From: Lama guanicoe
Lineage: Eukaryota
Direction: 5' to 3'
DNA length: 64,000 nt
NCBI GenBank assembly: GCA_013239625.1
Contig: MU053588.1
Location: 3,314,799 to 3,378,798 of the forward strand
The notes beneath the pieces are model-generated. The model saw only the letters and a program-made list of their open reading frames with translations. It was not told the DNA's origin and made no database searches. Below are positions 2,762-57,338 of this stretch, in pieces (position 1 is the stretch's first letter; every line of letters begins with the position of its first letter). The translations under genes and the position numbers were made by a program.

Positions 2762-4587
2762 GCCATAGATGTGTAAACAGACACTGTGTTAGGGAGCATA
2801 TGCCTCTATCTAGAGGTCCATTCAGATACGCACACACAATTACAAGTATCCAGAGCTTACAGTGTATTGCATATAGTGTATGTCACGTACCGTATTTTTA
2901 CATAAGTTTCTGAAATGTGAACAGGCAGAATGAGGAAGTGTGAGAGCTAAGCACACAATCACACAGGAAGAACCATGTGTGTGCACACCTATACCCTCAC
3001 TCAGACCCACATGCAAACACGTTCCTCAGAGGAGCCCAGTACTTCTGGCACTGGGGCTCTTTCAGAAGCGAGGAGAGCACGCACGTTTTCCCCATGTTGT
3101 GTGCCGGGTCCCATGTACATCTTTGCGTGTGCCTGGTGGTTGGGGTTATGATTCAGGGCTGAGTGGAGCCCTCGAGAGCATTTAGGACAAACTGCACCCA
3201 GAGCTTTCTTGAGTCTCCTCCTGGATCTGCTTCTGGTTGGTCCATGAGGGATGTCAGCTTCTGCTTAATACGGATATTCTGCATAATTAAGAGATACCTA
3301 TCATACGTGGGCAAGGGTCCACCACCTCTCAACATACTGTCCAGGAAGCATCCTGAGATGGACTTCCCATGTATCAAATCAACGTTTTTGGATCCGTAAC
3401 GTTGGTACACGTCTGCTTAGTGTGTACTCATCATGCACATAATTATCACATACTCGGTCATTCTTGGAAGGGATGAGTCCCCACCACATGCTGTCACTTT
3501 GGATGCTAGGGGTGAGGCAGAGCACAGGCCATCCTTGCCTTTGGCCACAGCCTCGGCCTGGAGCCTCCCTTCTAGCAGGCTTTCTCTGTCTGTTGTGCAC
3601 ACACACACTGGGGACTGTCAGGTACATTCCTTGCAGGGTCCGTATTCCTTCTTGCTCCTTCCAGGGTGGGCTGTTCCTGTGTTGTTATACACACACCCTT
3701 TTGGGGGTTCCCTTCTTACCAGTGGGACCCATGTGCCTTTGTATGCAAGCAGGGTGGGAGCTTTTTATGTTAACTTGTGTTATCCGCACACTGAGAACTG
3801 GCTCATGGGCGTCTATCTGGTTCACGCCAGGGAGGCCCATTCCGTCATGTGCCTGTGTTACAGGCACGGGCCATACTGTACTCCCTGCATTCTTTTGTGT
3901 TGTGCACACATAGTGAGGATCCTGGCAAGCTGTTTGGAATACGGCTCTGTGTCCCTGACATTCATGCCCTGTAGGTCTTGTGTGCCTAACTTGTGTGCAG
4001 GTGGGGCAGTTATTTCCTGTATTTATTTGTGTTGTGCACACACAGTGTGGGGCCTGTGTAGGGGTTATTAAATGGTTCCATGTCTCTTATGGACTCACTG
4101 CATAAGTCCCTGTACCTACTTTGTATTCACACTAGGAAGATATTTTTTGCATTTATTTGTGTTGTGCATACAGTGTGGGTCCCAAGAGGCTGCTGCCTAC
4201 AAGGGTTTAGCAGGTAGTTCCATGTCTGTTAAGCACGCTGCACAGGTCCCGTGTACTTACTTTGTACGCCCGCGGGGTAGGTGTTTCCTGTATTTATTTC
4301 TGTTACGCACTTGCAGTGTAGATCGCAGGAGCCTTCTCTGCACACGTGGGCGGTTGGTGATTCTCATGTTTCTCTCGTTCACCCTATGCAAGGGTCCTGT
4401 GTGCCCACTCAGTCCACGCAGGGCAGCTGGGCAGGTAACAAAGCGACGGGCGCCTGCGGAGCCGAGACCTCGTGGCGCGTGCCGGTTTCCTCCTCCTCTT
4501 CTTCCTCCTCCCTCCTCCCCTGAAACCCCATCCCGGTCTGGGTACCACTCGCAGCCCCATCCTTCTCCCCGCACCGCAGCGCCCCTA

Positions 4588-4600
4588 CCAGCAGGGGGCG
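4588..4600 (+). promoter_or_regulatory. CTCF core motif (CCAGCAGGGGGCG)
   Basis: Core match inside a small CpG cluster (about 4430-4610). Confidence 0.6.
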
Positions 4601-4899
4601 GCAGCCACGTGTCCTCCTCAGACCCTGCGCAGACCTACCCCTACCCCAGCCCCCTTTCCTTCCTCTCTCTCCCCAGCCTTATGGTGCCAGGCACAGGGGA
4701 GGTGTTCAGTGACTGGGTCCTGCCCTCCTTGCTCCCCTCCCCTCCCTACAATTCTTGTCTCTCCCCACCTGCTCTCACCTGCTCTTCCCTGCTTGGTGCT
4801 CCCCTAGACCTGCTTTTCACTCTCCAGGTCTCTGCTCTCACCCCAGCCTGCACCTTTCTGCTTTTTGTAGGCTCTGTCTCTTTGTTCCCTTCCCCCACC

Positions 4900-6585
4900 C
4901 CCTCACCTTTTCCAAATTTGACTCTTTATTTCCGAGTCTCCATTTATCTCTTGCTACCTCCGTCTTGTATTTCCCTATGGATCTCTGTCCACCAGGATGC
5001 CTCTTCCAGTGTCTGTCTATCTCCATCTCACCAAATCTCTCTGTCTCCTTCGGTGTCTCCTTTCCTGTCTCTTACAGTCTCTATCCATGTCTCTCTCTGT
5101 ACCTCTGTGTTTCTCTGTGTCTCTGTGTTTCTCTGTGTCATCACTTGACTCTCTAAGTCTCTTTCTCTGCTCTCTGTCTCTCACTGTCTCTGTATTTCTC
5201 CTTGTCTCTTTTTCTGTTTTGGTCTCTGTGGCTCTCTTGGACATTTCCTTCTTTCTGTCTGTTTCTTAAGTTCTCTCTCAGAATCCCTATGTCTAATTCT
5301 CTATGTTTCTGTCTACATCTCACTAATCATCTGTCTCCTTGTCTGCCTCTACCCCTCTGTGCCTCTTTCTCTGTCTCTGTCTCAGTCTCTGCATCTTTTG
5401 GTCTCTGTCAGTGTCTTTCTGGCTTTGCCTCTCTCTCTCTCTGCCTCTTTCTTCATATCTCTCTGACTTTGCACATCTTTCTTATCTCTGTGTCTAACTC
5501 TCTGTGCCTGTCTCTGTCTCTGTCTCTGTGTCTTCCTCTGTCTGTATATCTCCAATTCTGTCTTGCCTCTGCATCCCTACTTCTCTGAGTATGGCTCCTT
5601 CTCCTGTCTCTGATTCTTACATGTCTATCTGTCTTATCTCTGTCTCTGTGTGTGTGTGTCTGTGTCTTTGTCTCTGTCTCTCTCTCTATATGTATATATA
5701 TGACTATTCATATCTGTTGTCTGTGTGTCTGCTTCTTTGTGGCCGTCTTTCTGGCTCTTCATCTCTCTGCATAGATCTCTTCTCCTTATCTCTTTATCTC
5801 TGGATGTCTCTGTGGTTCTTAATGCCTCTCTCTGCTTTCATGTCCCCAACTGCTCTCCCCACCTGTCTTACTCACTCATACCTCCCACATGCCAATATGT
5901 TTCTGTGTGTCTCTGGCATCTCTCTGTCTCTCTTAAGTCTCTTCCTACCTCCATATCCCCTGTATTCCCACCCCTCTCCCTACTCCCTTTCCTTCCTGTA
6001 TTCTGTGTCTCTGTTGTCTCTTTGAGTCTCTGGTCATAGGGCCTCTCCCTGCCTTTGGGTTCCCCTCTGCTCCCCACCACTCTCTCTCTCTGTCCCTGTA
6101 TTTCTGTGTTTCTGTGTGTCTCTGTCTTTGAGCATCTCTTTGTCTCTGTGAGTCTTTCCATGCCCCTCACTCTTCTGTGCTCCCTGCCGTCTTTCTGCTC
6201 CCTTTTCCCCCTGTCTCTGTCTCTGGATGCCTCTGTGTCTCTGGGTGTCTCTGAGTCTCTGGGCCTCAGGGTGGCTCCATGCTTTTGAGTCCTCCTCTGC
6301 TCGTCCTCTCTCTTTCCCTTCTATCTCTTTCTGTGTGTCTCTGTCTATCTCTGTATGTCTCTGTGCTTCTCCTTGTCTCGTTGTCCCCCTCTACTCCCTG
6401 TCCCTCTCCCCTCTCTCTGTCACTGCATCCCTATCTATTTCACCCTATCTCTGCATCTCTCTGTCTCTGTGTATCTCTGTGTCTCTATGAGTCGCGGGCC
6501 TCTCCCTGCCTCCGTGTCCCCTGCGCTCCCCGCCCTCTCCCTCTCCCTCTCTCCCCCCTCGCTCTCTCGCTCGCGCTCTCTCTCT
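4900..6585 (+). repeat. Long pyrimidine-rich low-complexity tract (TCTC/TGTC/CTCTG)
   Basis: About 1.7 kb dominated by C and T on the + strand, ending at the CpG island. Confidence 0.9.
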
Positions 6586-7720
6586 GAGCATCCTTGGGCC
6601 CGGGGTTGCCATGGGGACAAGGTGGGAGCCGGGGATGGCGCGCGCCTGGGCTCGCGCCGGCAGCTCAGGCGAGGAGCAGCGGCCAGAGCAGCGCCAGCAG
6701 CAGGCAGCGAGCGGGCGCGGGAGCGGGAGCGGGAGCGGGGGTAGCGTTGGCGGCGGCGGCTCCTCCTCGGCCATCCCCTCGGAGCCGTGCAGCTGACGCG
6801 CATGGCGAAGACAGCGGCGCCTACCGATGGGAGCAGCGGTAAGGCAAGGCGGCGCGGCGCAGCCGGGCGGGCGGGCGGCGGGCAGCCTCCTCCTCTCCCC
6901 AGCTCGCCTGCGCGCCGCCCGCCTGCCCTCCCTTCCTCCCTCTCCCCTCGCAGCCCCTGCCCGCCCGCCCGCGCCGCGCTCGCCCTTCCATTTAAAAATC
7001 TTTAAAACTTTGCATATTAATATCTGCGCTTTGCATAATCTGGCCCGCGCTTTATTGATTGCAAGAAGCTTAATGCAGCCGGCTCGGCCTATTGCAGAGA
7101 GCTCTCCGGGCGGGAGCCGAGCGGGCGCCGCTCGCTCCGCACCGCGCTCCGGCTGCCCGCCGCCGCTGCGGCCCCGGCCCTTTCGCCTCCCTCTCGGCGC
7201 CCAGTCGGGGCTTTGCCCCTGGCTGGGTATTTTTATTATTGGGGGGCGGGGGGGTGGGCTGGCTGTCAGTGGTAATGAGGAAACGAAAGGAATGATGGGG
7301 GGGTGGGGAAGGATGGGAAGAAATGAGGACGTAGAGGAGGTGAAGAGGGAGAGAAAAAGGGGAGAAGGGGCAAGAAGAAATGGGAAAGGAGAGGTGTGGA
7401 GGAGGAGGCAGCAGAGAGAGGAGAGAGCAGTCGACTGAGGACGGAGCTGAAAGGACGGAGCAGAGCGGAGGCAGAGAAGAGAAAGGAGGGAGGCGAGAGG
7501 AGCGCAGACTAGAGAAAGAGCGGACGGCCGGGGAGCTGGCGGAGACCCGGCGATAGGCGCTTCGTCGCTGCCGCCCCCAGGCCAAAAAATAAAGAAAAGG
7601 GGGGAAAATAATACCAATAAAAAGGCGAAAATAAAACACATCGCAGCCGGGGCCATCTGCGCCCGGCTGGCTTCGGCGCTTTGGAGAGGCTCACTGGGCT
7701 GGGCGGGATCCCCATTGTGG
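6490..7720. promoter_or_regulatory. CpG island / distal POU2F2 promoter candidate
   Basis: Abrupt high density of CG dinucleotides and GC-rich sequence around the 6802 exon, against CpG-depleted flanks. Confidence 0.85.
6802..6838 (+). CDS. POU2F2: Candidate distal alternative first coding exon of POU2F2 (MAKTAAPTDGSS + 1 nt)
   Basis: cgcATGG start inside a CpG island, 12 codons plus G, then the donor CG|GTAAGG at 6839. The phase-1 end matches the phase-1 start of exon 2 (G|AA ATA AGA ATG = E-I-R-M). Splicing is inferred, not observed. Confidence 0.7.
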
Positions 7721-10700
7721 ACCCTGCATTTGGGGAAGGGGCGACTGTGGAGAAAACGAGGCGAGAGGGGGTCAGGGCTGGTGGTGGTGCTGCCTTTTTT
7801 TTTTTTCTTTCCTGGGGGTGTGGGGGCCGGTGTAGGGTGATCATGGTGAGGATATTGGTTGGTGATGCTGTCTGAAGCTCGGAAGGAAGCAGGGTGCATG
7901 GGGGGAGAGGTAAGAGGGCATGGGGAATGAGATAGGGCTGGGGGTGGGGATGAGGGGCAAGGGAAAGAAACGGGGTGCCTCGGACTGCTGGAAGGGTGGA
8001 AGCTGGGAGAGGGAGTAGCTGGGATAGGGCTCCGAGGCAGCGGTGTATTCGGCAGGAGAGGCAGGCAGCGGAGCTCCAGGGCCCGGGAGTGATGTTGGGG
8101 AGCCAAGGTGCGCCCCTCAGCTCTCTGGGCAAAGTCTATAACTTGGGGAACCCCTTTGGCTGCCTCCTCCTGCCTCTTTGCTCCCTTCTCTTTTCTTCCT
8201 CTCATCCTTCCCTGGCTCCTTTTTCTCCATCTCCTTTGCCGATTTCTCTTTCTCCCTGTTTTCCAGCTTCTCTGTCTCTTCCTCCTCTTAATAAAAGCTT
8301 TCTCTCCCCCACTCCTCAGGTTTTCTTTTCTTTCTTTTCCATCTTCCTTTTCTCCACCCCTCCCTTTCTTTTTCTCTCTTTTTCCCCTTCTCCTTTCTCC
8401 TTTTCTCTCGTTCTCTCTCCCTGCCAGTCATTTCTCCTGCCCCTCTTCCTTTCCACCCCCTCCCTTAGTTTCATTTATTCATCACTTTTGTAGCATTGGC
8501 CTTGAACAGCGTGCCAGGGAGAGGGGCTCTGTGCAGAGACAGGACTCCCCCAAGTTTCCCCAGAGCCTAACCCCTGTTCTGCACCATTATGTATTTCTAC
8601 CCTCTTTTATCCCTATTGGGGGCTTGGATCTGCCCAGGGGGTTCTAGCACCACCCCGTATTTCCTCTGGCCTCCTGGAGAAGTCCTGCTGGATGCTCACT
8701 GGGGCCATGGGAGGGGGAGGGGAAGACTTTAAGTGAGGGCTCATGACTATGGACTCAGCTCCACTGAGAGAAGGGTGTGGACGGAGAAGAAAATGACATG
8801 GATTGCTAGTGGAAAGTGAAAAGGGGAGGTGGTTGGGGTGGAGGTCCAACTGAGAGGGTCCTCAGAGCTTTTGCACCCGTGGTAAAGATCTGAAGAGAAA
8901 GCCTATGGCCCGCTGACCACTCCCTGCTTTCTCCCTCCATCCTGGGGCCTGCAGAGTTGGGGAGCAGGTCCTGGATTTAGAGAAATACCCAGAGAGATGC
9001 TTAACTCAGTAGCTTTTAGTCTCTTACCATCCTGTTAGGTGAATTTGCCCCCTCCCCCAGGGCATGAAGGGAGAGCATGGCGTCAGTGGGGGGCTGGCGA
9101 GTACAGTCAGACCATGGCGGCAGAGTGCATGTGTACACGGCCTGCATGCGTTTCAAGGGGCGTTCAGGACAGACTGACTGTGTGCCAGGCTTGGGAGCCT
9201 TGGCAGAGTGAAGAGCCAAAGGTGTGAAATCATGACATGTGTGTCCAGCTGGGGGCTGGTATTGGGGGTTCCCACTGTGGGTGACATGTGTGCAGGAGGG
9301 AGTGGGCGCGTGTATTTATCCTGTAAGGTCCTTCCCTTGTCTCGATGATCATGGAGCCCTCGCTGCATGTGTGCTCGGGAGGCACTCTCTGGCTCTGTGC
9401 GCGGTGGCCGTCCATGCGTGTGCATGTCTGTGTGCCAAGTCTGGCATTTGTGGTGGGTACGTCAACCTGTACATACAGTGTGGTTGGCGTAGAGGCTTTG
9501 CGTGCAAGGACTAGGTCTGACCGTGGTGTGCGCCACTAGAGGACACATGAAATAAAGTCACATACATGAAAATAACCATTTTGACATAGAGCTATTATTG
9601 TTGTTGTTGTTGTTATTATTCTTGTTAGGTGTCTCTGGGTCTCTGTGTGTTCTGGGTCAGAGGGAGGGTGGGTTTGTGAAGCAGGGTCCAAGTGCATTGA
9701 TGAGAAATGTGCTCAGAGGTCGCGGGAGTATGGTGGGTTTGGCAGGATGCTTGCACAGCAACCTTGAAGCTGGGTTCAAGAAAACAAAACAAGAAAAGAC
9801 CCCCCCTCCCCGAAGTCTGTCAGCCCGCAGAAACCTTCCTTGGCTCTTTCGTAGTAACAAAGCATCCCATGTCAGGGTGGCAGGCGGATCAGGAGGGAAG
9901 TTGATCAAGGCCACAGACAGCATCTCCAATTGCTGGTAATGTGATCCCACGTCCACTTCCTGATTTCTGGGTAATGCTGGACAGAAGCCCATCCGTGTCC
10001 ATTGGAAAGGTCCAGATCCCCATTTCCTTTAGGCTGCTGGCCAACCCTCTGGCCAGTTACAATGCCATCCTTGGGGGCCTTGGTTACCCTCACTTCCTTC
10101 TTTCAGTCTTTGTAGGGAAAATGGAGGGTGTCTGTTGCAGGGACCATGGTGGGGAAAGAACTCAGCCACAGTGTGTGTGTGTGTGAGATGAGGGTTAGTC
10201 CATACATTCTAAACAGCTTCCTTGCCAGATTTTTTTCCAGTGGGTTCACCACTGGCCACTCCAGGCCACCTGCATTCTAGTTCATACACACTGGCTCCTT
10301 GCATACAGGAGCCACATTGGCTTACCTCACCAATGTGACAGCCAGGCTTGGGGCCCCAACCTCAGCATCCCCCTGGATAGAGCTTGTCAGAGCCTGGTGC
10401 ATAATCTTAGTGTGTGATGGCATGACCTGGGACGAGGGACAGATGGCCTCACCCGGGGGCAAGGGAACAGTTTCCCTGTCTGGCATGTGCTGGTTAATTT
10501 CTAGTATTTTTTTCAGGATTGAAATGACTGAGAAACTTGGCTTTAGAGGATTGTTAGAGGAGAGAGTGAGTGTGGGGTCTCCTCAGACTGGGATCTGTTC
10601 TTTCTTCTAAATATACATCACTTATTATTTTTCCTTTGGGCCCAACACCTCCTGATCTAATAATAATAATAATGACAATGACGACATCCCTTACATCCAC

Positions 10701-20300: not shown

Positions 20301-20639
20301 AGTCATCTTTAAATAGCTCCTACTGCTATCCTCCAGTCTCAAGGCCCTGCTGGGAATACGGCTCCCAGCTCCCACAGGGCGGTCTCTCCCATGGGGAGAT
20401 GTTATCTGCCTGGGAAAGGGGTCTGTCCAAGGGCATATGGAGGTGCAGGGCCCTAGGAGATGGCATGAGGTGGAGAATTGGAGGCAGATGGGCCTGGGGT
20501 GGTCCTGCCCATGGGCATCGTAGCTGAGGGAGGCAGAGGGCAGAGACAAGTAGGGGGCCGCTGCTGGAGGGAAGCCCCAAGGAGAGGCGCTACCTCCAGG
20601 GAAGACCTCAGCCCGAAGGCGCTATCTGGTTCCGGGGCC

Positions 20640-20850
20640 CTGAGAGGCCCGGGGATTCCCCCGCCCGCCCTGCCATCACTTACACCAATATTGACGGTTA
20701 ATGCCGTGTCGCCACTGTGTTCAACACTCAGCGCGGCTAATTGTTTTGACTGGGAATCGGCAAGGCGATTAAACGCCATCGATTTTGCCCTGCGCGCTGC
20801 ATCGATTTTTAAATTTCCTATTGATCCTGGCCCTAAATCTCCTTAACCAA
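20640..20850. promoter_or_regulatory. Candidate enhancer with kappaB and CUT-type motifs
   Basis: Non-repetitive, CpG-retaining, mixed-composition island with GGGGATTCCCC, two CATCGATTTT copies and TATTGATC. Confidence 0.6.
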
Positions 20851-22360: not shown

Positions 22361-24039
22361 TACAAGTCAGAAACATTGTTATGACTTTTATTTTCATCTC
22401 CCCAAGGCACACAGGCACCTAATAATGAATAATTCTTCCACATCTTTCTCATTTGACCCTCCTAGCAGTCCTTGGAGATGTATAGTTTGTTAATTAATTA
22501 ATTCCTCCATACACTCATCCATCCATCCATCCACTCAGTCATCCATCATGTACTTATTGAGCACCCTGCATTTGCCAGGCCATCTGCCAAAGGCTAAAGA
22601 TGTAAGACACAGCCCCTAGCCTTTAATGAGCTTCCAGTCTGATGGGAAAAACAGATGTTCAACAAGGGCAAGCATCAGTATACCCACTCATGAGATAGGA
22701 ACACTGAGGCTTAGAGCCGGTAAATGAAGGCAACCAGTGTCTGGCAGGACCTGAGTCCACATTCACCAACTTGTGACTCCTGATGGTGTGACAGGAGCAG
22801 AGTCCCTTTGTTCCAGGAGTGCCTCATCCTGCATGAGGTAGAGATGCTTCACAGGTTCCCCAGGATGCTGACTCTGTTCTCCTCTCTCTCCAGGTTCTCT
22901 GCTGGACCAGGTTGGTGGCCTGAATGTATTAGCTTTGCTGCTTCTGCCCAAGAGGTAAGGGCCACGGCCCCCAAAGCTTTGCTTATTGCTGTGCTCTGGG
23001 CCCTGCTTCCTCTTGGAAGTCCCCGCTTCCTATCCTGGTCCCTGGCCCCACCCCAGGGGTGCTGCCCTGCCTCATTCTGCCTCTATCCTCCCAGAGGTTA
23101 GTCTGACTGATTTGTGTTTTCATCCTCCATGTGTCCTGCAGCTGTCTGGCCAAATGGATTCTGGATGTTGGTGACTGTGCGATTTCTGCTGTTGAGTGTT
23201 GGGGCTCAGTAGGAGAGAGAGATGGGGGTAACTTGATGGCTCAGATCACAGCTGAGGGTCAGGCATACCTGTGTCTGAATCTCTTTTCTGTCCCTTCCTA
23301 ACTGCCGGTGACTTGGGACAATCAGAGCTCTATTTCCTTGTCTACATAAAGGAATAATAACAGAATCCACCTTAAGTGCTTTCCTGAGGATGGAAGCCTA
23401 GTGGGGTCGTTTGGATTCTAGCTCTGGAGCTGGACAGCACTGGCTCTGCCAGTGCCAGCTGTGTGATCCTCAGTTTCCCCATCTGTCAAAGGAAGGTAAT
23501 AACAACATCCCCAACAGGATGTGAGGGTGAAAGAAGTTACTCTTCCGAAGCAGGGAGCCTCAGGAAGCAGGAACTCGAAATACAGCTGGAAGCTCTCCTG
23601 AGCAAGTGAGGATTTGTAAGGCCCCCTCCTTGGAATTCACTGAGACTCCTGGACGGAAGCAGGAGTTCTCTGGTGCTCAGCTCTGCAGGAAGCAGAGGCT
23701 CTGGGCGTTTGCTCTGGAGTTTGCTCCACTCAGCTTGGTGACGCCCAGGCAGTGAGCATCTGAGAAGGGGTAGGGACAGGGCCCCTGGGGACCCCCACTT
23801 CTGGTGCTGCCACCTGTATTCCAACCAGAGCAGCTTAACCCACAGGCCTCAGGACCTTAGGGGGGCCTCTGGTTGCTCTGGTAGACTTGTTGCTATGGGG
23901 GCCACAGCCTTACTTTAAGAAGCAGATGAAAACTGTAGCTTAGGGTTTGCAATCTGATGTGGTAAGGAAGGTGGTAGACTGGAAGTCATTGGTGGTGGGG
24001 AAGCTGCTTTTCAGCGCGACCGACTGTCCCCTGGCAGAG

Positions 24040-34499: not shown

Positions 34500-34573
34500 N
34501 NNNNNNNNNNNNNNNNNNNNNNNNNNNNNNNNNNNNNNNNNNNNNNNNNNNNNNNNNNNNNNNNNNNNNNNNN
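34500..34573. other. Assembly gap (74 N)
   Basis: Run of N flanked by G-runs. Confidence 0.99.
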
Positions 34574-35964: not shown

Positions 35965-36510
35965 AACTCATGCATCCCACATGTCTGCTGAGCACTTGCT
36001 ATGTGCTGGGCCCTGTTTGGGGCACTGGAGATAAACCGGTGAACAAAACTGGCACAGCCGATTTCCTCAGAGTCGACAAACTAGAGGGAATGAAGATCCT
36101 TAAGTGTAAATATCAATTAAATGCAAAATCAGAAATTGTGATAAATTCCCTCAAAGGAGAGACAAGAATAGGGAGCCAACAGAGAGACTGAAAGACATTT
36201 AAGCTGAACCTTGAAAGATGAGTGGATTTAATCAGGGAAAGAGAATTTGAAGAAGTGGGACCTGCAAGTGCAAAGGGCCTGGGGTTGGAAAGAGCTTGGT
36301 TTGAGGAATAGAGAGGAGGTAGTGAGGTTTAGGGCAGAGAATGGTGGGGGGAAGAGAGGAGAGCTGTCAGCAGGGGCCATATCACACAGGACCCTGTAGG
36401 CTGGATTGAAGGGTTTGGGTTCTATTCTCAAATGCAGGGAAGCCCCTGAAGAGTCTGAAGCAAGGGAATGACACAGCCTGATTAAGGTTCAGAAAGACCC
36501 TCTCTGGGTA
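35965..36510 (-). mobile_element. L2 LINE fragment
   Basis: ctgagcacttgctatgtgctgggccctg...caagtgcaaagggcctgggg...gaagagtctgaagcaagggaatgac. Confidence 0.8.
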
Positions 36511-43029: not shown

Positions 43030-43335
43030 AGAGGGTCCCCAGGGGCGGCCGAGAGGAAGAGGGCATGGCTGGGGGCCCTGAGGGGTGAAGAATCCTGCTC
43101 GGCTGTCCCCGGTGGGCTGGCTGCTCTCCCCCCCACTCCCCGCCGGGCCCCCAGGGGACCTCGCTCTAATAATGTATTTGATCGACTCGCCGGCCGCGTA
43201 CAAGCGATTATTGTCTTGTCGGGAGTCAAACGTATCGATCCGGTGAGAAATATGAGCGGAGCAATGGGGCCCGCGTGTCAGTTACCAGCCCCGCTGGCCC
43301 TGGGGAGCCCCCTACGTCTCCTTTAATTACCGCTC
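43030..43335. promoter_or_regulatory. Candidate enhancer about 2.4 kb upstream of the canonical ATG
   Basis: CpG-retaining island with TATCGATC, TTTGATCGA, TAAT/TAATTA cores and two EBF-like sites. Confidence 0.55.
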
Positions 43336-44539
43336 AGCCCTGAGCCCAGCCTGGCCTCCCCTGTGCTGGCTCCCTCCCAGGCTCCCTGCACCTCCAGTAG
43401 CCCCCTCTGCTCCCCAGCTCTCAGCCCTTACCTGCCTTGCTCAACATGGCTTGAAGCCTCTTCTCCAGCTGAGAGGCCACCATCTATCTTGCCTGGGCCT
43501 CCCTGTTTCCAGCTGCCAGGCCCTACCCACCCAGTGTGTCCCAAACTCCGCTCCTCTGTCCTCTCAGGCCCATTCTTCTTTAAGATGCCCTGATTCTAGC
43601 TTAGGGACTCAGTGGAGCCAGCATGGGAGGCAAGAGGGGTGGGGAGCGTGTAAGTCTTTCTCCAGCTCCCCCACTCAGCTGTAGACCTGGGAGGGCAGCA
43701 CCAGAATTGGGTGGTGCTTTGCTCCTTGCTTTGGGTTACATCCAAAAGCTCGGTCCTGACACGGATGATGTTGACTGTGTCCAGGGTGGAGCATGGAGGT
43801 GTTTTGGTAGGGTTCTGCCCACACCCCCAATGTCCTTATGACCCTCATTTGCAAGTCTCCCAAAACATAAATCCTAAGTAGAAACAGAGCTCACTGGGCA
43901 AATGCAACTTCAAGATAAGGCTTGAGAACCCCTGCCACCAGACTGCTGTCTGGGAGACCCTCATGTGTAAAAATCCTGCATCTGAGGGAGAGACAGGGAA
44001 AGAGGTGGGCCAGGAGGCAGGAAATCTGGGTTGCAGCCCAGTTAATGCTGTGTGGTCTCTGGATAGCCTCAGTGAAATGGCCTTTACAGTATGGAAATTT
44101 GTGGAGTGTTCATAGCTGGGAACTGTGCCCTCTGTGTGCAGAAGGACCATTGGTCATTTCCTTGGAGTGGGCCTGCCTGCCTGGGTGTGTCTGGGTGCAC
44201 AGGGCCAATGTACAGAAAGAAAGGCACCCATGAAGGTTTGCTTGTGTGTTATACTCTATGTGAGTGTGCATGCGTGTGAATGTGGGCACGCATAGTGAGG
44301 AGGTATGCCTGGGCACACTTGTGTGGATGTGCCCTTGTGCCGGTGTGCCACTTGAGGGAGCAGAGCAGGGCTCTGTGCATGGGAGTGTTGATAGGGAGGG
44401 TTGGTGTTAGGGCCTGTGCACCTAGAGGAGTGTTCTCGTGTGTCTGCATGTGCACACGTGTGTGAAGTGCTGGGGTCCATGTGTATAAATACTTGAGTGT
44501 GCGTATGTGAGTGAATCCAGGCGTCCCTGTGCACGCGCA

Positions 44540-45130
44540 TGGTTTGGGGGGTCCCCCGGCGAGGGGCGCAGCGAGTCCTGCAGGGCTGGGAGCCGGCAGG
44601 TCGGCTGTTCGGAGGCTCCAGGCGGCCCGGCAGCCTCGGACCGGGCACAGGGAGGAGGAAAAGGGCAGCGGGCTCGGCCGCGCCTTTGTCTGCGCCGCCG
44701 TGCGCCGGGAGTCCTGCGCCTTTGTGTGACCCTCGCAGGTGTGCGCGCGGGGGCGGGAGTTCGGGGGGAGACGGGGACCGGGAGGGAGGGGGGGCTCCCT
44801 CCTCCGCAGCCGGCCCCGCCCTCTGGCCCATTGGCTGGGTGCTGCCGCCCTCTGGCGGGCACGGAGGAAAGCGCTGGGCTGAGAGCGCCGCAGCGCGAAC
44901 GGCCAGCCAGCAGCCAGGGGACCAGGTGCTTGCCTCCACCAGAGCTCCTCGGGCGCCCACATTTGCCCCCTGGAAGACCTGGACCTGCTGCCGGCCCTCC
45001 CACTGCCCACGGGCACCACTTCCTCTCAGTGGTGGCCCTGAACGCCTCACCTGCGAACAGGTTCGAGGCTGGGTTCCCCATTCCCCACAGCGGTGCGGAA
45101 ACCTATCGCGAACGCCTCCTCCTGCCCTGC
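44540..45130. promoter_or_regulatory. CpG island upstream of the canonical POU2F2 first exon
   Basis: CpG-rich segment with a GC box (CCCCGCCC, about 44814), an inverted CCAAT (ATTGG at 44830) and a CTCF-like motif at 44846. Confidence 0.75.
44846..44858 (-). promoter_or_regulatory. CTCF core motif (CCGCCAGAGGGCG on minus)
   Basis: The reverse complement of CGCCCTCTGGCGG matches the CTCF core. Confidence 0.5.
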
Positions 45131-45539: not shown

Positions 45540-45655
45540 GAAGGGGGCGGGCCCTGTGGTTTCCTCCCTGGGTGACTTCCGGAGGAGAGGGCTTTGCCCC
45601 CAGAGAGGGCGGGGAAATGACACAGTTGTTCCCCCAGCCCTGCGGGGCGGGCAGC
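45540..45655 (+). promoter_or_regulatory. TATA-less proximal promoter / 5' UTR of canonical POU2F2
   Basis: GC boxes at 45544, 45607 and 45644. RUNX TGTGGTTT at 45555-45562 overlapping an ETS-type TTTCCT. ETS ACTTCCGG at 45575-45582. All lie directly before the ATG. Confidence 0.7.
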
Positions 45656-45683
45656 ATGGTTCACTCCAGCATGGGGGCTCCAG
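45656..45683 (+). CDS. POU2F2: POU2F2 canonical first coding exon (MVHSSMGAP + 1 nt)
   Basis: agcATGG start. Translation equals the known Oct-2 N-terminus MVHSSMGAP. Donor CAG|GTAAGG at 45684. Confidence 0.96.
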
Positions 45684-51655: not shown

Positions 51656-53249
51656 TGGCTTTTTAATCAGAAATTTAAAATCCTAGTGGCGTTTTGTGTT
51701 GAGTAATCTTCAATGGCAAAATTCCTGGACTTTTTTTTTTTCCAATTGCTGAGGTTATCCCAGCTCCTCCTTTAGCTGGCCTTGTGTGAATATCTTGGAT
51801 GCAGAGCACACTAGAGTTGGACAGCTCCTTTGATAGGGTGGGGTCGTGGTCTTGGCAGGGATTTGGAATGAGTTGTGGGGGAGACTTTAGGGTCAGAGTC
51901 AGGGTCAGGAGTAAGGTCTAGGGCCAAGTTGGGAGTCGAGATCAGATGAAGGACTCAGGCCATCTGGATGGGAGTTAGGAATCAGGGTGGGTAAGGGGAT
52001 TGAGAGTGGGTCAGGCAGAAGCCCGGATTTGTGTGGGGGTCTACAACGAGGAAGGGTTGGGTTTGAATCAGTGTCAGGGTGAGCTTGGGTTGGAGTGACT
52101 GTGGGAGATGAGGTGCTGGAAGTCACGAACGGGTCCATCAGATGGCAGCAGTACTGGAGTCACAAAGACCCGGGTCCAATCAAGTCACCTCTGCTGTCTC
52201 ACTGTGCTCTTGGGGAGGTGAGATCCCCCTTGGAGCCTCAGTTTCCTCCTCTGTAAAATGGGGGTAATATTAGCACCAACTGCTAATGTGAGCCCTGAAT
52301 CATGTTTCTCACTGTGCTCAGCACTGGTAACACTCACCTTTCCATGATCAGCATCAGAATACTGTGAGGACAGGGGTTTGTCTCCATTGCTTTGTGTCCC
52401 CTGGTGCCAGCTTGCTGCTTGTCACCTCCCCTCAGCCACCTCCTTTCATTTCCTGGGCCTGCGGAACTGTAGGATAGGATTGTATTTGTAGGGGCAGGAT
52501 CTCTAAGTTGGATCTGGGTGTGCAGTTAGGATTCAAGGCTGAAGTCCCAGGTGAGGTCTAGGATTAAGTCTGAGGACAGGGTTGGGGCAGAGCTGATGGA
52601 GTTGGAATTGGAGTCACAGAGATCAGAGTGGGGCCACCTGTGCGCTGAGTACCCAAAGGGAGGCCAGTGGGAGTGGGGTGTGGACGGGAAAGTGGTGGGC
52701 TGTGGAGGGGGCCAGAGGGCGGCTGAATCAGAGCCGGAGATCTGAGGACTCACTCCTTTGGGGATGCTGTAGTCCCCTCACGCCTCCCAGGCCCCACTCA
52801 GAGTGGAAAACATGCCTCACCCGAAACCTGGTGAGGCTGGTGAGGCAGGACGGGGGCCTGGGCGGCAACCTGAGAGGAGGCCCGAGGCTGACTCGCTCCT
52901 TTAGAACATCACCAACCTCCCCCTGGGCAGCCAAAGCCTCCTCAGGACCAACAACCAACGTCTACCTCCCACCCTGCCCCAGGGTCTCATGGGGGCGGGG
53001 GTGACCCTCTCCGTGCCACCTTCTGGAGGGGTGAAGAGGATCCCTGAGGCCTGAAAGCCCCTCTTCTGTCCCGCTGGAGGTGGGCAGAGGCCCAGAGCAG
53101 AGGGCATGTCTCCCGGAAAGTGACACTTGCAAGGTGGCAGGGGGTGCGGGGGTATTTGGGGAGAGGCTGGGGTGGTGCTGGAGGAGGGGCCCCAGAGCCC
53201 TCCTGGCTTCTGCAACCTCACCCCACTTGCATCCCTCCTCTGTCTCCAG

Positions 53250-53315
53250 AAATAAGAATGTCTAAGCCCCTGGAGGCCGAGAAGCAAGGTCTGGACTCCC
53301 CGTCAGAGCACACAG
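53250..53315 (+). CDS. POU2F2: POU2F2 exon 2 ((E)IRMSKPLEAEKQGLDSPSEHT)
   Basis: Polypyrimidine tract with ccag| acceptor and CAG|GTGAGT donor. 66 nt, phase 1-1. Peptide matches Oct-2. Confidence 0.97.
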
Positions 53316-57059: not shown

Positions 57060-57338
57060 CTCACGGCATTGATGCCAGCTCAGCAGCAGCTCCTCCTGCA
57101 GCAAGCGCAGGCCCAGCTCCTGGCCGCCGCCGTGCAGCAGTCCAGTGCCGCCGCCGCCGCCGCTGCCGCCTCCTCCACCTCCTCCTCCTCCTCTTCCTCC
57201 TCCTCCTCTGCCTCCTCCTCCACCTCACAGCCCCCAGCCTCCTCGGGGGGAGGCGACCTGCCACCACCACAGCCTGCCAGCCAACCCCCCGGGACCCCAC
57301 AGCTCACCCTGTCCCAGCCCATCCAGCTCACTGCACAG
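57060..57338 (+). CDS. POU2F2: POU2F2 cassette exon (LTALMPAQQQLLLQQAQAQLLAAAVQQS...PQLTLSQPIQLTAQ), 93 aa, Oct-1-like Gln-rich segment
   Basis: cccacag| acceptor and CAG|GTAAGG donor. 279 nt, phase 0-0, no stop. Both ends resemble the corresponding POU2F1 exon (PAQQQLLLQQAQ...LLAAAVQQ; LSQPIQ). Confidence 0.85.

Follow-up and report, generated by a model that had tools for sequence, protein, structure and literature searches.

A distal first exon of POU2F2 in Lama guanicoe, very probably the orthologue of the mouse spinal-cord exon E1X

The window (the whole 64,000-nucleotide stretch of Lama guanicoe DNA analysed here) carries the proximal first exon of POU2F2 and, very probably, the coding end of a distal one, together with the cassette exon E1b, the shared exon 2 and exon E5b (Table 1). 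The distal segment lies in the largest of nine CpG islands called in the window. Its ATG at 6802 opens 12 codons, ATG included (6802-6837; peptide MAKTAAPTDGSS), and a G at 6838 closes them before a GTAAGG donor at 6839; the sequence-only reading had described this arrangement inside a large CpG island, and the letters agree with it. The two first exons share a phase-1 end, and with exon 2 beginning at 53250, right behind a CAG, the frame opened at 6802 runs on without a stop through exon 2. The 6802 ATG is 38,854 bp from the proximal ATG. The intron between distal exon and exon 2 measures 46,411 bp, and its true length is uncertain because it contains an assembly gap of 74 N. The downstream exons look camelid: nine retrieved proteins carry five or more of six downstream exon peptides without change, and every one comes from Camelus or Vicugna.

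Table 1. Coordinates of the features at the POU2F2 locus (positions in the window)
Feature	Position	Strand	Remark
CpG island, presumed distal promoter	6381..7820	.	1,440 bp, GC 0.65, CpG o/e 0.79
Upstream ORF(s)	6611..6796	+	ATG 6611 (61 codons) and ATG 6635 (53 codons)
Distal first exon, coding 3' end	6802..6838	+	very probable orthologue of mouse E1X; 12 codons + G
AT-rich block in island, candidate regulatory site	7009..7060	+	two TTTGCATA and one TATTGATT (Onecut-type core)
Candidate Onecut element: 48 bp with three ATCRAT (Onecut/CUX-type) sites	20778..20825	.	
E1b, 61-nt cassette exon, putative mouse E1b orthologue	22894..22954	+	breaks 6802 frame
Assembly gap, 74 N	34500-34573		within long first intron
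Proximal B-cell exon 1, coding part	45656..45683	+	9 codons + G, donor 45684
Shared exon 2, 66 nt	53250..53315	+	internal Met used by short isoforms
E5b, 279 nt, exon of spinal isoforms	57060..57338	+	

Alternative first exons of mouse Pou2f2 were described by Harris et al. (2019; PMC6561314). Transcripts of the embryonic spinal cord begin in exon E1X, which lies some 47 kb upstream of the start used in B cells. B-cell exon 1 could not be amplified from embryonic mouse spinal cord, and an E1X-to-E3 product was amplified from spinal cord and not from B cells, the products being sequenced; embryonic spinal cord and B cells were the only tissues compared. The exon was taken from the predicted transcript XM_006539651.3, with the ATG placed at its 3' end. 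Four spinal isoforms are named (S_Pou2f2.1-4), and E1X transcripts were found both with and without E1b, an optional 61-bp exon that breaks the frame; E5b is a 279-bp exon (PMC6561314).

The N-terminus MAKTAAPTDGSSEIR opens four Mus records (XP_006539714.1, XP_006539715.1, XP_006539719.1 and UniRef A0A8C6H0M4) and is identical to window positions 6802-6837 at 12 of 12 residues (E=3e-5 within the window). Judging by the offset between the accession numbers, XP_006539714.1 is presumably the product of XM_006539651. With the N-terminus as query, only the top four among the best 120 of 271 matches spanned all 40 residues, and all four were from Mus. With the window's E5b as query, three of the best 120 of 238 proteins began with MAKTAAPTDGSSEIR, and the 93-residue (279-nt) E5b is present in three of the four Mus records that carry this start, XP_006539714.1 among them. 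The sequence-only reading had mentioned mouse spinal-cord transcripts with a different first exon; the window exon is almost certainly the counterpart of that exon, E1X, since the peptide is identical and both E1b and E5b occur in the window at their published sizes. Its proposal of an alternative first exon joined in phase to exon 2 is borne out by the Mus records, which carry the predicted N-terminus followed by exon 2. From the sequence we infer both orthology with E1X and use of the exon in camelids. The distal exon and its promoter were already known from mouse, which makes the core of the finding a rediscovery. A literature search, with most subscription journals outside its scope, found no further study of the exon, of a fish counterpart or of the Onecut-type sites.

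An ATG with an open frame and a final G before GTRAG is a frequent pattern: 19 such rows lie upstream of exon 2, three of them with an early stop. This frequency would suit a chance origin of the 6802 ATG and donor, with the true E1X located at some other place, perhaps upstream of the window; a spacing equal to the 47 kb of mouse would likewise land outside the window. A coincidence is nevertheless highly improbable given the match of 12 of 12 residues at 6802-6837 and the mouse records that join this exact peptide to exon 2. Among the 19 rows, 6802 is the only one in CpG-rich DNA (local observed/expected ratio 1.01, next 0.45), and it is the only candidate first exon upstream of E1b to be located in a CpG island. 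By a rough weight table of base frequencies, the 6839 donor takes place 33 among the 3,028 GT sites that lie upstream of exon 2, and within the island it leads all 38.

The probe coordinates of Harris et al. (643-876) give, by hand estimate, a first exon of 256-367 nt in the mouse model, which would put the equivalent 5' end near 6470-6580 in the window. The ORFs that start at 6611 and 6635 have G at -3 and +4 and end 5 nt before 6802; they are relevant only if transcription starts upstream of both. A very long CT/GT-rich low-complexity tract (about 5000-6590, AT skew about -0.6) adjoins the distal island on its upstream side, and another CpG island, a small one at 4261-4670 with CACGTG at 4343 and 4606, precedes the distal exon by 2 kb and is a possible further start.

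The 6802 segment could also belong to an exon that is internal or hybrid, with the true start still farther upstream, in which case the island would not be its promoter. Harris et al. could not exclude exons still further upstream of E1X (PMC6561314). The same short protein is encoded by three curated mouse transcripts, an AG at 6587 closes a long pyrimidine tract, and the island at 4261-4670 would offer a second start region. All three pyrimidine-preceded AGs that were found are GAG, which is a poor splice acceptor, and the exon sits within the largest CpG island of the window. An internal exon is quite unlikely, and a first exon driven from the island is the preferred reading.

Exon E1b, which lies between the two promoters, had been overlooked in the sequence-only reading. 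Its pyrimidine tract (17/18) is the best among nine candidate 61-nt exons; the other eight have weaker tracts (3-13/18) and leave the cloning primer of Harris et al. unmatched. That primer has no match in the window at three or fewer mismatches, and its best match, with five, points to E1b and not to 6802: at 22937, 15 of 18 bases fit the end of the 61-nt exon, and the final three bases of the primer are those that open exon 2. The E1b peptide also turns up in an Apodemus model (85% identity, E=4e-10). E1b is open in the 6802 frame and also holds a two-codon ORF at 22924. In computed frames, its inclusion gives the 6802 ATG an ORF of 37 codons, which overlaps the exon-2 ATG and ends shortly behind it. 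The E1b donor outscores that of E1X in the rough weight table. Just upstream of exon 2, a segment at about 52950-53132 resembles the N-terminus of two meerkat models (70%) and may be an extra alternative exon.

Together these features suggest how the distal unit may work. The distal transcripts, which are dominant in mouse embryonic spinal cord, would arise from a promoter in the CpG island, some 39 kb upstream of the one for B cells; the distal promoter would serve neural transcripts and the proximal promoter B-cell transcripts. Direct splicing of E1X to exon 2 would yield a protein with a different 12-residue N-terminus. Inclusion of E1b may act as a translational switch by turning the distal start into an overlapping upstream ORF. 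The 37-codon ORF stops just past the exon-2 ATG, so protein from such transcripts must come from the exon-2 Met, and only this short form would be made, by leaky scanning past the weak 6802 start. The 6802 ATG has C at -3 and distal transcripts would carry additional upstream ATGs at 6827 and 22924 (and at 6611 and 6635, if these are transcribed), which makes leaky scanning likely. From these frames and contexts we likewise infer that 6802 may serve as a translation start and that E1b may control translation.

Records of the protein bear on whether the distal ATG is translated. Among 345 mammalian POU2F2 records (cluster representatives plus up to 15 members per cluster, and thus not a census), 278 start in the proximal exon, 45 at the exon-2 Met and four with the distal N-terminus, all of them from Mus, with 18 other or partial. 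The distal N-terminus is absent from the 10 camelid records checked. The curated mouse protein NP_001404063 corresponds to XP_006539715 with the first 15 residues removed and so does without the distal ATG; in isoforms 6 and 7, which are curated mouse forms too, the exon-2 Met is the first residue. A real exon whose ATG is mainly a regulatory upstream ATG would fit these records: initiation at the exon-2 Met would supply the protein, with the extended one a minor product, because most distal transcripts would include E1b or be scanned past. Such a regulatory role agrees with the main reading except on translation. The 45 records against four, the start of isoforms 6 and 7, the C at -3, the higher score of the E1b donor and the further upstream ATGs (6611, 6635, 6827 and 22924) all speak for it. 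On the other side, the camelid and mouse peptides are identical at 12 of 12 residues, a similar exon is annotated as coding in 93 of 105 teleost matches, and the product lacking E1b was also found in mouse (PMC6561314). We regard a mainly regulatory ATG as a serious prospect that comes somewhat short of an even chance. The Pou2f2 gain-of-function construct used in chick by Harris et al. (PMC6561314) and Masgutova et al. (PMC6853997) apparently begins at the E1b/exon-2 junction and lacks the E1X ATG, as the primer position indicates; the chick experiments would presumably not test the long, extended protein.

Onecut factors have the consensus ATCRAT (PMC10914762), a type of motif that is common to Onecut and CUX proteins (PMC6582315). 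Three ATCRAT sites cluster in the first intron of the distal unit (Table 1), mostly inside a small CpG island at 20541-20810; when the window's 23 sites were placed at random 100,000 times, clustering as tight arose 217 times. AAAATCRAT, which we take to be a longer form of the Onecut site, was found three times against 0.37 expected, and one of 100 shuffles reached three. ATCRAT overall is not enriched in the window (28 against 26 expected), nor is TATTGATT (two against 0.73 expected). In the AT-rich block of the distal island, where we assume TTTGCATA to be octamer-like, both site counts were reached by three of 2,000 island shuffles, and POU autoregulation through this block is possible; a perfect octamer does not occur in the window. 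Both the cluster and the block were noticed first and their statistics run afterwards. The cluster is a candidate neural enhancer or silencer, and beside it 20680-20780 is rich in TAAT/ATTG homeodomain-like words. A further Onecut/POU composite site may lie in AT-rich DNA at 36105-36130, where ATCAAT adjoins ATGCAAA.

Harris et al. could not say if Onecut factors act on Pou2f2 directly (PMC6561314). The coordinates given here bear on two questions that their study left, namely direct repression by Onecut and use of the E1X ATG. A combined reading in which the N-terminus has been kept since the bony-vertebrate ancestor and is translated in neurons, E1b acts as a switch and Onecut factors repress directly through 20778-20825 is rather doubtful as a whole.

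The proximal promoter of POU2F2 in human B cells is arranged head-to-head with the lncRNA LNROP (PMC9971199). The assignment of 45656 as the lymphoid start agrees with the literature, in which this is the B-cell exon (PMC6561314) and shares the LNROP promoter in B cells (PMC9971199). An in-frame ATG at 45617, 13 codons upstream of the canonical start, is used by all 10 camelid records checked. Two CpG islands, 44381-44940 and 43031-43390, lie upstream of the proximal ATG at distances of 0.7-2.6 kb, in the region that in human holds the antisense lncRNA LNROP. The three human LNROP E-boxes were not matched as a trio in the window, which has a single CACGTG at 44455, and an Rfam search gave no matches. 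Homology of the proximal exon with POU2F3 exon 1 is not supported (ranks 104 and 249, with only phase and length equal), nor is homology with the turtle start (rank 70, with only phase equal).

The age of the distal N-terminus was approached through vertebrate records, fish included. Among 50%-cluster representatives the top match was a catfish pou2f2 whose start resembles the 6802 peptide. The catfish query, which biases the search toward its own type, gave 105 teleost matches: 93 of an 18-residue type, 11 of a second type and one shortened. The commonest 18-residue first-exon peptide is MTKTAAIAAKDFSSMWLP (MTKT type). Against this form the 6802 peptide ranks first among 1,916 window ATG peptides (score 23, next 22), and ungapped it ranks 1, 3 and 10 over 6, 8 and 12 residues. 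For 16 of 19 related teleost variants, which are not independent, its rank is 6 or better, and for the other three it is 19, 27 and 66. Given the short peptide and these dependent variants, the ranks are fair evidence of homology and not proof. The similar teleost first-exon peptide supports the 'ancient' part of the earlier suggestion that the distal promoter is ancestral, and the distal N-terminus is probably very old and may be shared with fish. For the other teleost first exon (MFVP type, 11 of 105 matches), the window offers no convincing counterpart. The single turtle record with a first exon has a start that differs from the 6802 peptide. Two fish POU2F1 starts match the 6802 peptide weakly (ranks 17 and 60 of 1,916), and the lamprey start ranks 156.

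Comparison with mouse shows a closely similar system. Mouse E1X, like the window exon, has its ATG at the 3' end and reads in frame into exon 2 if E1b is left out, and both species have the 61-nt frame-breaking E1b before exon 2 and the 279-nt E5b. The distance to the B-cell start is about 47 kb in mouse and 38.9 kb in the camelid, whose span holds the N gap. Mouse E1X has been seen in transcripts, whereas the camelid exon is known from DNA; although it begins none of the 10 camelid records, the full neural exon set (E1X, E1b and E5b) is here recognised outside rodents. The teleost pou2f2a first exon (e.g. P0521 and P0346) shares with the 6802 peptide a start of M followed by T or A and KTA(A), as well as a D-x-S motif, and like the 6802 exon it precedes a D/E-I-R-M-S-K exon 2. 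It differs in having 18 residues with a W-L-P tail against 12 at 6802, and an unrelated second type of first exon occurs in teleost records as well. The paralogue POU2F1 has alternative first exons, as the sequence-only reading had stated, including a 9-residue form that is high in B cells (PMC5100579). Like POU2F2, it places short alternative first exons (Oct-1A and Oct-1L, together with Oct-1X) on a common exon 2 and has a form from the exon-2 Met; unlike POU2F2, its Oct-1A predominates in most tissues, and antibodies have detected both proteins (PMC5100579).
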